Positions 21,001 through 30,000 of a stretch of 64,000 nt of DNA are shown here, piece after piece; position 1 is the first letter of the stretch, and each line of letters opens with the position of its first letter. Source of the DNA: Escherichia coli (GTDB lineage Bacteria > Pseudomonadota > Gammaproteobacteria > Enterobacterales > Enterobacteriaceae); the NCBI RefSeq assembly GCF_045037415.1, contig NZ_CP173440.1, one strand, 5' to 3'. Made by a program: the position numbers.

Positions 21001-24000
21001 TGGCTTTTTTTTAGTAGTATGATATGAAGTGTTTATAAAACCATGTTCAGGAAATGAGCTCCCCCATCAACCATTAAGGAAAGTTTAAGATGAGAAGACT
21101 TCCCGTCTATCTGCTTCTCGATACATCAGGTTCAATGCACGGAGAGCCTATAGAGGCAGTTAAAAATGGTGTCCAGACACTACTGACCACCCTGAAGCAG
21201 GATCCTTATGCACTGGAAACTGCATATGTCTCTGTCATTACTTTCGACTCTACTGCTCGTCAGGCCGTACCTCTTACAGATCTCCTCAGTTTCAATCTCC
21301 CCTCTTTTTCGGCAAGCGGAACTACCGCTCTGGGCGAAGCCTTATCCCTGACTGCAAACCGAATTGATGCAGAAGTTCAGAAAACGACAGCGGAGACAAA
21401 AGGCGACTGGCGTCCACTCGTTTTCCTGATGACGGATGGTGGCCCTACGGATGACTGGCGTAAAGGACTTAATGAATTCAAAGCAGCCAAAAAAGGGGTA
21501 GTTGTCGCATGTGCTGCCGGGCATGATGCAGATACGGATGTGCTTAAGGAGATCACCGAGATTGTTCTCCAGCTGGACACTGCCGACAGCTCTTCCATCA
21601 AAGCTTTTTTCAAATGGGTGTCTGCCAGTGTTTCCGTAGGTAGCCAGAAAGTCGATGCCGGTAAAAAAGAAGTTATCGGTCTTGATGATTTGCCTCCACC
21701 GCCGCCAGAAGTAAACGTGGTTTTATAAGCAATTAACTTAAGAGAGGATCCTATGACTGTCAGCTTACGGAAAGGGCAAGGCGTCAGCCTGCGTAAAAAT
21801 GAGTTCGATCTTTCCTCAGTCACGATAGGTCTTGGCTGGGACATCAATGAAGAGAAAAAAGGGTTCCTGGGCGGAATTTTTGGCAAAAAAGAGGAGGAGT
21901 ATGACCTCGATGTTATTGCCTTTCTCTGCAACGCAGCCGGTAAAGTGACTGATCTTGGCAATGTTGAAAATGGTAAGCCGACACTGGTTAACGGCGATAT
22001 CGTCTTCTTCAACAGTCTTCGCCATAAATCAGGGCAGATCTGGTTGACCGGCGATAACCGGACAGGTGCCGGTGACGGAGACGATGAGCAAATTATCGTA
22101 AAACTAAACAGCATCGATCCGAAGTACGAAAAAATTGTCTTTATTGTTCAGATCTACAACGGCGAAAAATTACAGCAGCACTTTGGAAAAGTGCAAAATG
22201 CATTTATCCGGGCGGTAGACGGAAAAAATGTGGAAATGGCACGCTTTGACCTCTCCGGCGGTGTAGCCTTTAATGGTCAGCGATCGATGGTCTTTGCTGA
22301 GCTTGTCCGGGAATCCAGTGGCTGGAAACTGAATGCGATAGGCGAGCCTTCCACCTCCGATTCGTTCGTAAGCCATCTGAGGAACTATATCTAAATGCGA
22401 AGACTACCCGTATATCTGCTCATCGATACTTCCGGCTCAATGAGAGGAGAATCGATACATTCAGTGAATGTGGGTGTGCAGGCTATGCTGAGTGCCCTGA
22501 GACAGGACCCTTATGCGCTTGAAAGCGTCCATATCTCAATAATTACATACGATAATGAAGCCCGGGAGTATGTTCCCCTCACTGCCCTGGCTGACTTTCA
22601 GTTTTCTGATATAGAAGTACCAAGTGCGGGCGGCACCTTTACCGGCGCGGCGCTTGAATGTCTGATCCAGTGTGTCGACCGGGATATTCGCCGCTCTGAT
22701 GGTGAACAGAAAGGCGACTGGAGACCGCTGGTGTTTCTGATGACAGATGGTACTCCGTCAGATGCCTGGGCTTATGGGGAAGCTGTTAAAGAGGTTCAGC
22801 GGCGTTCGTTTGGTTCCATTATAGCCTGTGCTGTTGGCCCTAAAGCGGGACACGAACATCTGAAACTACTGACTGACAAAGTTGTGGCTCTTGAAACACT
22901 GGATTCGACCGCATTTTCAGGCTTTTTCAAATGGGTCAGTGCCAGCGTGGCTTCAGGAAGCTCCAGTGCCGGAGTCACTACTGATTCGGACACACTTCCA
23001 CCGCCACCGCCAGAAATCCAGCTTGTTCTGTAACTTACGCCGGTATGGCAGGGAATAACCCTGCCTTATACCGATAAAGTCCATCTCTGCTATGGACGTC
23101 ACATTTTGCTATGAGGGAGTTTCCTGTGAGACGACTTCCCGTTTTTTTTGTTCTGGACTGTTCTGAGTCCATGATTGGTGAAAACCTGAAAAGGATGAAT
23201 GATGGCTTGCAGAAGATTGTGAGCGATCTGCGTAAGGACCCTCATGCTCTGGAGACTGTCTGGGTGTCAGTAATTGCCTTTGCCGGTATTGCCAGAACGA
23301 TTGTCCCGTTACATGACATTGTGTCTTTTTATCCCCCTCGCCTTCCTGTCGGTGGAGGAACTAACCTCGCGACTGCCTTACGGGAACTGACAACACAAAT
23401 AGATTCTCAGGTCCGAAAAACGACGCTGGAAGAAAAAGGTGACTGGAAGCCAGTTGTCTACTTACTTACTGACGGCCGACCGACAGATGACATTTCAGCT
23501 GAGGTTAAGCGCTGGAACGAATTTTACGCAAAAAAAGTGAATATGATTGCTGTGGGGATCGGACCATCAGTTGATCTCAGTGTACTCAGGCAACTGACTG
23601 AAAACGTCTTATCGTTTACCGAAAATCAGGAAGGCGATTTTTCGCGGTTTATCCAGTGGATCACAGCTTCAGTCACAGCTCACAGTCGTAGTGTTGGCGA
23701 GGATTCTCAGCCGCCCCTGAAACAAACTGACTATATCGTCAAACTTGCCAAAGATGACACAGCCCGTGCATACGATGAAAACTGTGTGGTATTAACCGGG
23801 CGTTGCAGTAAAACCCGTCGACCTTATCTGATTAAGTATGAGCGTCCGCCAGCCAGGGTATCGGGCCTCGCTTTCGATCTAAACCTTAACAGCTTTAACA
23901 TTGCTGGTTGTTATCCTGTGGATGAAGATTACTTCTCATGGACGGATATGTCCGTAGCCGGGGCGCAGATAAACACCAGTGAACTCCATGGCGTACCAGG

Positions 24001-27000: not shown

Positions 27001-30000
27001 GGATTGTGACCAGAAATGGTACGTTTTCAATGGAAAGACGAAACCCGTTTGTCCCTATTGCGGTACACCCTACAAAGGCAAACTCCCCATCCTGAATCTG
27101 TATTCGTCGAGAAAAGCTGGAACTTTCAGGCCAGATGATCACCGGCTTATGGTGTGGAGCGGTCAGTCATTATATGCATGGCACGTCAACCGACTGATTG
27201 CTCCTAACGAACGAACCACCGATGAGCAGAAGAAAAGGGTTGGTTATTTCGTCTTCCATAATGACCAGTGGTGGCTGGTTAACGAGGGGCTTAGCGGGCT
27301 CATATCACTTCCCGATCGGAAAACGGTCGGCATTGGTGAAAAGTTGCTGCTGGAGGATAACACCCAGTTCATCCTGTCTTCAGAGGATGGCGGGCGATTG
27401 GTGGTGGTTCAGCTTTTGAATAATTAGCTATATTACTGGCCATTGATATCATAACGTCAATATGAGCCCACCATTAGGTGGGCCATAATTATCACAGTCG
27501 AAACGCAACATCTCAATACTATCCCTTTGAGCCTGGAAGATGGTTCGGCGGGACAGGTTATCCACAAACATTGAAGAAAGAGTGTCTCACATTCAGTAAG
27601 AGTAACTTTCACAAATCGCCCCACTAGGGAAACACCACAGTCAGGACAGAAGTCCGGAAACGCCTATTTTTTTCATCAGCTAATTATGTAGCCCCTTCTG
27701 TTCTACTCTTTCCCGGAATGTTCCGGTCCGGAACAGTGTCTGCCGGTAATGCGCCAGAAAAAAATGTATCCCTGTATAACCTGGAAGCCCATGTGTTTCA
27801 GGGGAGCCCGCAGAATTCGGAAAAAATCGTACGCTAAGGTTTTCCGGGCATCCGTAAGGGCCGAAACTTCCCGTCTTCCAGTCTGCGGCTCTGCCGCCAG
27901 ACGTAATCGCCGGTTAGGTTGATGTGCTCCCAGCCCAGCGGCGACAGGAATTGCAGCAGCTCGCCGTCCACCGGCTTGCCGGCCTCGACCAACCCCTGGG
28001 TGGCGCGTTCCAGGTACACCGTGTTCCACAGCACGATAGCCGCCGTCACCAGGTTGAGGCCGCTGGCCCGGTAGCGCTGCTGCTCGAAGCTCCGATCCCT
28101 GATTTCCCCAAGGCGGTTGAAGAACACCGCCCTGGCCAGCGAGTTGCGCGCCTCACCTTTGTTCAGGCCGGCATGCACGCGGCGGCGCAGTTCAACACTT
28201 TGCAGCCAGTCCAGGATGAACAGCGTGCGCTCGATCCGGCCCAGCTCGCGCAGGGCCACGGCCAGTCCGTTCTGGCGCGGGTAGCTGCCGAGCTTGCGCA
28301 GCATCAGCGAGGCGGTGACGGTGCCCTGCTTGATCGAGCTGGCCAGGCGCAGGATGTCGTCCCAGTGGGCACGCACGTGCTTGATGTTCAGGGTGCCGCC
28401 GATCAGCGGGCGCAACGTCGGGTAGGCTTGCACGCCCTGCGGCACGTACAGCTTGGTTTCGCCGAGGTCGCGGATGCGCGGCGCGAAGCGGAAGCCTAGC
28501 AGGTGCATCAGGGCAAAGACGTGATCGGTGAAGCCGGCCGTGTCGGTGTAGTGCTCCTCGATCCGCAGGTCGGACTCGTGGTACAGCAGGCCGTCGAGCA
28601 CATAGGTGGAATCGCGGACGCCGACATTCACCACGCGGGTGCTGAACGGCGCGTACTGGTCGGAGATATGGGTATAGAACAGCCGTCCCGGCTCGCTACC
28701 GTACTTCGGGTTGACGTGCCCGGTGCTCTCGCCCCGGCCACCCGCGCGGAAGCGCTGGCCATCGGAGGATGAGGTCGTGCCGTCGCCCCAGTGGGCGGCA
28801 AAGGCGTGGCGATACTGGTGGTTGACCAGCTCGGCCAAGGCCGCCGAATAGGTTTCGTCGCGGATGTGCCAGGCTTGCAGCCAGGACAGCTTGGCGTAGG
28901 TCAGGCCGGGGCTCGACTCGGCCATCTTGGTCAGCCCGAGGTTGATCGCATCACCGAGGATTGCGGACAGCAGCAACGTCCTGTCTTTGGCCTCGGCCCC
29001 GTCCTTCAAGTGGGTGAAGTGGCGGCTGAAGCCCGTCCAGTCGTCCACGTCCATCAGCAGTTCGGTGATCTTGATGCGCGGCAGTAACTGGCTGGTTTGG
29101 TCGATCAGCGCCTGCGCCCGATCCGGCACCGCCGCATCCAGCGGGGTGATTTTCAGCCCTGACTCGGTGAGGATGGCATCGGGCAGCTCGTTGTCCTTGG
29201 CCAGGCGGGTGACGGTGGCCAACTGCTCGTCCAGCAGCTGCAAACGCTCTTCCAGGTACTGGTCGCTGTTCGGGTTGATCGCCAGGGGCAGGGCCTGCTC
29301 GCGCTTGAGTGCGGCGAACTTCTCGGCCGGCAGCAGGTAGTCGTCGAAGTCGCGGAACTGCCGCGAGCCCTTGACCCAGATGTCGCCGGAGCGCAGGGCG
29401 TTCTTCAGCTCGGACAGGGCGCAGATTTCGTAGAATTTCCGGTCGAGGCCTTCCGGGGTGATCACCAGCGGCTTCCAGCGCGGCTTGATGAAGGCCGTGG
29501 GTGCATCGGCCGGCACCTTGCGCAGGTTGTCGGCGTTCATCTCACGCAGGGTCTGCACGGCTGCCAGCACGCCTTGCGCGGCCGGCGCGGCGCGCAGTTC
29601 CAGCACCTCCAGCAAGGCCGGCGTGTAACGGCGCAGGGTGGCGAAGTTCTCGCCGACCAGGTGCAGGTGGTCGAAGCCTTCCGGCCGGGCCAGCAGCTCG
29701 GCCTCGCTGACGCTCTCGGTGAACTCGTCCCAGGGAATCACCGCCTCGATGGCGGCATAGGGGTCGCTGCCGCTTTCCTTCGCTTCCAGCAGCGCCTGGC
29801 CGATCCTGGAGTACAGGCGCACCTTGTCGTTGATCGCCTTGCCCTGCTTCTGGAACTGCTGCTGATGCTTGTGCTTCGCGCCGCTGAACAGCTTGACCAG
29901 GATGCGGTCATGCAGATCGACCAGCTCATCGATCACGGTCGCGGTGCTCTCCAGCACCACGGCGGCCAGGGTCGCGTAGCGGCGCTGCGGCTCGAACTTA

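Follow-up and report, generated by a model that had tools for sequence, protein, structure and literature searches.

The six co-oriented genes at positions 21090–27427 of the 64,000-nucleotide stretch of Escherichia coli DNA analysed here (contig NZ_CP173440.1 of assembly GCF_045037415.1, referred to as the window) very probably represent the canonical terY1-terX-terY2-terY3-PP2C-kinase cassette of the ter locus (resistance to tellurite, phages and colicins) of enterobacterial plasmids, in which the TerY-P phosphorylation triad with its putative switch takes its ter-linked form. According to PMC11090510, which summarizes the work of Anantharaman, Iyer and Aravind 2012 (Mol Biosyst 8:3142), the triad consists of a TerY-like vWA protein, a PP2C phosphatase and a Ser/Thr kinase with a zinc ribbon. 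The hypothesis was that it acts as a switch which senses metals, depends on phosphorylation and is connected with tellurite resistance and with DNA-processing and defence systems (PMC11090510, PMC4978471). The six-gene cassette, its arrangement and the phosphorylation-switch hypothesis were already published in 2012 and are not new. Our first-pass annotation had described the genes as a phosphorylation-controlled, Ter-linked sensing module; this description fits the published TerY-P prediction and the intact motifs of the proteins, but it restates what was already known.

The cassette and its proteins

The listing of open reading frames between window positions 17000 and 32000 contains six closely spaced plus-strand genes (Table 1), in agreement with the boundaries, the single orientation and the short gaps annotated initially. 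The intergenic distances are, in order, 24, 0, 77, −1 and 27 bp, with the PP2C start codon overlapping the terY3 stop codon by 1 nucleotide. Three vWA proteins (one of them with a C-terminal Cys-rich domain), a TerD protein, a PP2C phosphatase and a kinase had been named on first reading. These assignments are borne out by Pfam scans of terY1, terX, terY3, PP2C and the kinase after repair of its reading frame, which support VWA, TerD, TerY_C, PP2C_2 and Pkinase domains; terY2 was assigned by alignment and motifs.

Table 1. Genes of the cassette and associated features (window coordinates)
Feature	Position	Strand	Evidence and remarks
terY1, vWA protein, 212 aa	21090–21728	+	Pfam VWA 5.9e-14; MIDAS DTSGS...TDG; C-terminal LPPPPPEVNVVL tail
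terX, TerD-family protein, 213 aa	21753–22394	+	Pfam TerD 1.1e-51; GDNRTGAGDGDDE Ca2+-site motif
terY2, vWA protein, 212 aa	22395–23033	+	MIDAS DTSGS...TDG; C-terminal LPPPPPEIQLVL tail; RefSeq VWA domain-containing protein
terY3, vWA + TerY_C, 351 aa	23111–24166	+	Pfam VWA 2.1e-14, TerY_C 3.5e-52; MIDAS DCSES...TDG
PP2C-family Ser/Thr phosphatase, 577 aa	24166–25899	+	Pfam PP2C_2 2.1e-47
Hanks-type Ser/Thr kinase gene (predicted), 499 aa when intact	25927–27427	+	Two overlapping ORFs (open reading frames) here: 25927–26907, 26639–27427
Private 1-base insertion, GGTCTC to GGTTCTC	26810..26811	+	Shifts kinase frame at codon 295
Hairpin directly after terW stop, 12-bp stem, 8-nt gap between arms	20618..20649	+	Inverted repeat; fold −18.8 kcal/mol, z = −3.29 vs shuffles
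AT-rich spacer, ~440 bp, putative cassette promoter region	20650..21089	+	GC down to 0.44 in 20001–22000
TnAs1 38-bp terminal inverted repeat	27801..27838		Sequence; resistance-plasmid matches start at window 27800; TnAs1 transposase annotation

Over 7.2 kb the region is identical, except for one base, to many large Klebsiella pneumoniae plasmids, of which NZ_CP072809.1 (IncFIB/IncHI1B/IncR, NDM-1) served as reference. RefSeq names the products encoded there, in order, VWA domain-containing protein, TerD family protein, VWA domain-containing protein, TerY-C metal binding domain-containing protein, PP2C family serine/threonine-protein phosphatase and, for the 499-amino-acid kinase, 'lipopolysaccharide kinase InaA family protein'. 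Annotations of the cassette exist in more than 2,000 plasmid records. A scan against NCBIfam returned generic vWA and kinase matches only, all of them sub-threshold, and was uninformative. Given their tight packing and an order and size conserved across Gamma- and Betaproteobacteria, the six genes are predicted to form a single transcription unit. Because order and sizes recur in distant members of these two classes, the arrangement is far beyond chance.

All three vWA paralogues carry the metal ion-dependent adhesion site (MIDAS) motif DxSxS with a downstream TDG, which is invariant across taxa, and TerY1, TerY2 and TerY3 are each kept as a distinct orthologous group. TerY1 is 72–75% identical to its orthologues in Thiorhodococcus and Andreprevotia, and TerY2, which shares 49% identity with TerY1, also aligned with orthologues of its own. 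The Cys-rich metal-binding TerY_C domain of TerY3 spans residues 222–351 (nucleotides 23774–24163), with eight cysteines within residues 267–329; the protein ends in ...SRGRG and is conserved across taxa. RefSeq places the start of terY3 at a GTG codon at position 23126. TerX is homologous to the solved TerD structures 3IBZ (2.6e-34) and 2KXT (1.2e-32), to which its GDNxTGxGxGDDE stretch could be aligned, and differs from them by additional insertions.

The C-terminal tails of TerY1 and TerY2 (window positions 21690–21728 and 22995–23033) share a conserved LPPPPPE-x-x-VL motif that is also present in the orthologues of Klebsiella, Thiorhodococcus, Andreprevotia and Ignatzschineria and may be a candidate docking peptide. 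TerY3 ends instead in a conserved ...(S/G)RGRG. Yet another vWA-domain protein, of 413 amino acids, is encoded by the gene after terE (7711–8952, minus strand); it is called TerF in some records and is, by annotation alone, the fourth vWA protein of the ter locus.

The PP2C_2 domain of the phosphatase occupies residues 316–561 (nucleotides 25111–25848). Its motifs RDDD (residues 327–330), ADGAGS (347–352), TDG (515–517) and HDDRT (568–572) are invariant in six taxa, and the protein keeps all catalytic and metal-coordinating Asp motifs. The domain is preceded by an N-terminal portion of 315 residues (window positions 24166–25110), of which the first ~190 are variable, acidic, of low complexity and rich in Ser, Thr and Pro, and probably disordered. 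Residues ~195–300 form a conserved β-rich segment (LPNA-x-x-G-x-PY ... GL-x-FD ... G-x-P-x-x-SGD ... NPDP-x-SLWK), which has no match in Pfam and may be Ig-like.

Taking into account the predicted activities, the kinase and PP2C would set and reset Ser/Thr phosphorylation of cassette proteins, with the TerY vWA proteins, TerX or the long disordered N-terminus of PP2C itself as conceivable targets, and an FHA-like module located in the kinase may read the phosphorylation mark. Through the MIDAS of the vWA proteins and the Ca2+ sites of TerD, this switch could respond to stress involving divalent cations or the membrane, or to phage infection, these being sensed jointly with a TerD/TerC complex. 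The output would be a modulated Ter stress or phage response.

Kinase domains and the frameshift in the window copy

The intact kinase comprises a kinase domain (residues 1–~345), a zinc ribbon (355–378; nucleotides 26990–27061) and an FHA-like β-sandwich (385–499; nucleotides 27080–27424). The repaired protein matches Pfam Pkinase (8.8e-09), and the motifs GSGSM (23–27), K45, HSDLSYKN (169–176), D190-V-D and APE (212–214) are invariant across 29 homologues. When an AlphaFold model of the full kinase (predicted local distance difference test score, 74) was compared with known structures by Foldseek, the top matches were all protein kinases, including the bacterial PknS. Catalytic motifs and the bilobal fold of the model identify the protein as a predicted Hanks-type kinase, which is what the first-pass annotation had called it. 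The zinc ribbon conforms to CX4C...CX2C, with C355, C360, C375 and C378 being invariant, and gave weak zinc-ribbon matches in the sequence search.

The C-terminus was recognized by fold search as an FHA fold, an 11-stranded β-sandwich, and the FHA domains of Rad53, Chk2, FhaA and GarA are among the top Foldseek matches of this part. R406, S414, H419 and N452 are invariant among the kinase homologues and represent candidate residues of a GR...SxxH...NG pocket. The designation 'helix-hairpin-helix domain-containing protein', an NCBI/COG name for the kinase, was discarded, as it is unsupported by Pfam and the modelled C-terminus is all-β. It is tempting to speculate, at a rather low probability, that the kinase contains a cryptic functional FHA domain after the zinc ribbon and operates in the style of Rad53 and Chk2: phosphorylated threonines of TerY or of the PP2C N-terminus would dock to the kinase's own FHA domain, a metal-dependent vWA/TerD complex would assemble, and PP2C would dissolve it. 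If true, this feature would be missing from the published descriptions, which do not go beyond a zinc ribbon or an OB-fold.

The kinase was initially referred to as being in need of repair, and the break is indeed real in the window sequence, where an extra T at 26810/26811 interrupts the frame within the kinase domain, upstream of both zinc ribbon and FHA-like domain. An 80-nucleotide probe across the site matched 1,046 plasmid records, none of which contains this base; all are at most 98.8% identical to the probe. Between window positions 600 and 31642 the extra T is the sole difference from NZ_CP072809.1, with no substitutions. Another private change is located at window positions 19–20, in a cupin-domain gene, where one G is missing from CTGAGACC in comparison with NZ_CP072809.1, pLVPK and pK2044; the deletion was found in 0 of 593 matching plasmid records. 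Since two private 1-nucleotide indels coincide with zero substitutions, the kinase frameshift is probably an assembly error and not biology, and the data suggest that the window stems from an assembly with residual indel errors.

It is doubtful that the module is genuinely decaying in this plasmid, with the kinase gene a real pseudogene and the switch function of the cassette lost. Such decay would fit the loss of kinase subdomain XI, zinc ribbon and FHA-like domain caused by the frameshift at codon 295, and also the occurrence of at least one other plasmid record, NZ_CP137418.1, with the kinase in two pieces and no coding sequence listed. Yet all other bases of the 7.2-kb region match intact copies, the change is private, and a second private 1-nucleotide indel with not one substitution in 31 kb is typical of an assembly error. 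A genuine extra T would lock the switch in its dephosphorylated state. In NZ_CP137418.1, a Klebsiella plasmid, the two tblastn pieces of the kinase extend over 1,498 nucleotides (176196–177693). The gene is disrupted there by a different single-base change; frameshifts or indel errors in it thus recur in deposited assemblies. We dismissed programmed frameshifting as the cause of the split reading frame, since the extra T is absent from the 1,046 related records and from all homologues, which are single open reading frames of 499–511 amino acids.

Several points limit these readings. The switch model remains a prediction from comparative genomics, and the accessible literature contains no experiment on kinase or PP2C activity, substrates or phenotype in a ter-linked cassette. 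Searches of the kinase C-terminus against Pfam and PDB sequences gave no FHA match, so that phosphothreonine binding is putative. Finally, neither of the two indels lies within a long homopolymer, and this leaves room for a genuine mutation.

Genomic context and distribution

The kinase was found in 2,358 plasmid records, where it falls into two allele groups. Members of the first are at least 95% identical and mostly from Klebsiella; those of the second are ~86% identical and occur in Salmonella, E. coli, Enterobacter and some Klebsiella. Overall, the kinase family is large, with proteins of 499–511 amino acids that share 65–85% identity across Gamma- and Betaproteobacteria. Five loci were chosen for comparison, namely those of Thiorhodococcus, Andreprevotia, Shewanella, Pectobacterium and Ignatzschineria. 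Synteny of all six genes with near-identical lengths was observed in the first four and of five out of six genes in Ignatzschineria, where TerD, vWA, vWA-TerY_C, PP2C and kinase genes are called and no first vWA gene is called.

The surroundings of these cassettes vary. In Thiorhodococcus (protein lengths 212/214/213/351/570/499) a single extra TerD gene precedes the cassette, and neither further ter genes (terZABCE) nor biosynthetic genes of the kind present in the window were detected within 10 kb of it. The order in Andreprevotia is TerC, TerD, cassette and HAD hydrolase, with the biosynthetic genes being absent from the locus. Shewanella and Pectobacterium share the order biosynthetic operon, terW-like gene and cassette, and in Ignatzschineria the kinase gene is followed by genes for a phosphoribosyltransferase, StiP and a lyase and then by terZABCDE-like genes. 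The constant partners of the cassette are thus TerD-family genes and not the biosynthetic operon. As judged from these loci, the six-gene unit is strictly conserved and separable from both terZABCDE and the biosynthetic operon, which is a small addition to what was known.

Upstream of the cassette in the window, on the same strand, are genes for an ATP-grasp enzyme, a phosphoribosyltransferase, a hypothetical protein, StiP, an HpcH/C-C lyase, a DUF4236 protein and TerW; TerZ, A, B, C, D and E and the vWA protein 'TerF' are encoded on the opposite strand. A gap of 478 bp separates terW from terY1. The hairpin at its beginning is likely to be a transcript end or a site of processing, setting the biosynthetic/terW unit apart from the cassette; its role as a terminator is putative, as it has no clear U-tract. 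Because this stable hairpin and ~440 bp of AT-rich spacer precede terY1, we suggest that the cassette has its own promoter. One weak σ70-like site is located at 20863–20892, and such sites are no commoner in the scanned region than in shuffled sequences. The consensus scan for promoters and terminators as a whole yielded counts at or below shuffle expectation and was uninformative, and an Rfam scan upstream of terY1 for a riboswitch or leader matched no family.

These findings bear on the possibility that the cassette regulates the adjacent operon for a nucleoside-like metabolite (ATP-grasp, phosphoribosyltransferase, StiP, C-C lyase) and/or TerW, which we consider very unlikely. In the window, in Shewanella and in Pectobacterium the cassette does lie immediately downstream of the operon in the same orientation, and in Ignatzschineria it is found beside the biosynthetic genes in a different order. 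However, the association is facultative because the biosynthetic genes are absent from the loci of Thiorhodococcus and Andreprevotia, and the hairpin and the long spacer suggest separate transcription. The first-pass annotation had named the biosynthetic operon as a possible target; the same observations lend no support to a necessary tie to it.

On the downstream side, the ter locus is bounded by the TnAs1 inverted repeat, at which a resistance region starts. We considered whether this TnAs1/IS26 region had truncated the cassette and rejected the idea, as the repeat begins 373 bp past the kinase stop codon. The region itself (window positions 27801–60529) is a mosaic in which copies of IS26 occur both at the borders and in between, at 30868–31590, 42497–43219, 44336–45058 and 59762–60484, the last with three mismatches. 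Its content, as identified by comparison with NZ_CP072809.1, includes the TnAs1 transposase gene, mph(A)-mrx(A)-mphR(A), chrA and blaNDM-1/ble-MBL/trpF/cutA, with blaNDM-1 at ~47492–48304 on the minus strand; the order differs from that in NZ_CP072809.1. At position 41481, in the 3' end of mph(A), one copy of a 9-bp tandem repeat (TTCCGCTGC) is missing relative to NZ_CP072809.1, and the predicted product has 301 amino acids here compared with 304 for the coding sequence in that plasmid. Positions 31826–33001 comprise the class 1 integron integrase gene intI1 (31826–32839, minus strand), which adjoins an Rfam AAC_AAD_leader/attI match (32929–33001; 66.9 bits); both belong to a composite resistance region.

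Relation to known systems

Klebsiella virulence and resistance plasmids and IncHI2 plasmids very commonly carry the ter locus, to which the kinase/phosphatase cassette is an obvious regulatory entry point. In Klebsiella the locus has been described as a 14-gene unit including terXYW and terZABCDEF that is a gut-fitness factor linked to infection risk (PMC8115787), and fuller ter clusters with terXY1W conferred better survival under tellurite or oxidative stress (PMC11003894). The cassette genes appear as terWY1XY2Y3 in PMC11003894 and as terY-CYXYW in PMC12054061. The window copy adds nothing new on ter function, as hundreds of copies are identical to it apart from the probable sequencing error. 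What our analysis contributes are small increments, namely the FHA-like fold of the kinase and a strictly conserved unit that is able to occur without terZABCDE or the biosynthetic operon.

Stand-alone TerY-P-like triads are known to act in phage defence. They protect E. coli against T7-like Autographiviridae according to PMC7699616 and PMC11090510, which refer to Gao 2020, and in Pseudomonas aeruginosa TerY-P was reported by Costa et al. to provide defence against Autographiviridae with most cells surviving (bioRxiv 10.1101/2022.08.12.503731). The cassette might accordingly be a self-contained anti-phage system of the TerY-P type that merely travels beside the ter genes within an island of defence and stress genes and is independent of TerZABCDE and the biosynthetic operon, a reading we regard as possible but unlikely. 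It would be compatible with the Thiorhodococcus cassette, whose surroundings within 10 kb include one additional TerD gene but lack terZABCE and the biosynthetic genes, and with the hairpin and the 478-bp gap that part the cassette from terW in the window. By contrast, a TerD paralogue is always present in the cassette, which always neighbours one or more additional TerD or TerC genes; this argues for a functional tie to Ter proteins. Phage inhibition by R478 was mapped to terZ, terC, terD and terA (Whelan 1995, as summarized in PMC12054061). Moreover, the cassette contains no recognizable effector, and in the validated systems the kinase is followed by an OB-fold (PMC11090510), whereas a zinc ribbon and an FHA-like fold are found here. 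PADLOC searches at E ≤ 0.01 and E ≤ 10 gave no match for the vWA, TerD and PP2C proteins, the presence of TerY-P models in PADLOC v2.0.0 being unconfirmed, and matched the kinase to generic kinase models only (PD-T4-6, mad6, MkoA). For want of such matches, filing the cassette under a defence-system model was rejected. A Ter-linked TerY-P cassette remains our preferred reading.

The closest counterparts are the TerY-P triads of the ter clusters of IncHI2 plasmid R478, pKL53-L and Klebsiella virulence plasmids, which comprise the same genes beside terW and terZABCDEF. The window encodes a vWA protein with MIDAS, an adjacent PP2C and an adjacent Ser/Thr kinase with a C-terminal zinc ribbon, the open reading frame of the latter being interrupted; the conserved neighbourhood and the association with Ter domains are likewise found, with TerD/TerC neighbours at five further loci. 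Nothing substantive differs, apart from the private 1-nucleotide insertion in the kinase gene of the window and the FHA-like fold after the zinc ribbon, which is not mentioned in the published descriptions consulted.

The TerY-P anti-phage system of Gao et al. 2020 likewise encodes a vWA protein, a PP2C and a Ser/Thr kinase together. It is, however, a stand-alone system of three genes whose kinase has a C-terminal OB-fold, whereas the cassette has six genes and a kinase with zinc ribbon and FHA-like fold; the OB-fold fusion given in the PMC11090510 summary is not found in the window kinase. In CoCoNuT systems of Type II and of Type III-A, which are McrBC-like, vWA, PP2C and a Ser/Thr kinase with zinc ribbon also serve as an accessory signalling module. 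Their partners are McrBC-like GTPases, helicases and HEPN nucleases, whereas those of the cassette are TerD/TerC, and by open reading frame listing and annotation no nuclease or helicase genes are located next to the cassette in the window.

Further examples in which a Hanks-type kinase and a PP2C phosphatase are combined with a module of FHA fold, as appears to be the case here, are Rad53/Chk2 and the mycobacterial PknB-PstP-FhaA/GarA circuits. In contrast to these examples, the FHA-like fold of the ter-linked kinase, which bears no FHA signature at the sequence level, is predicted to lie C-terminal to a zinc ribbon and in the same chain as the kinase domain.

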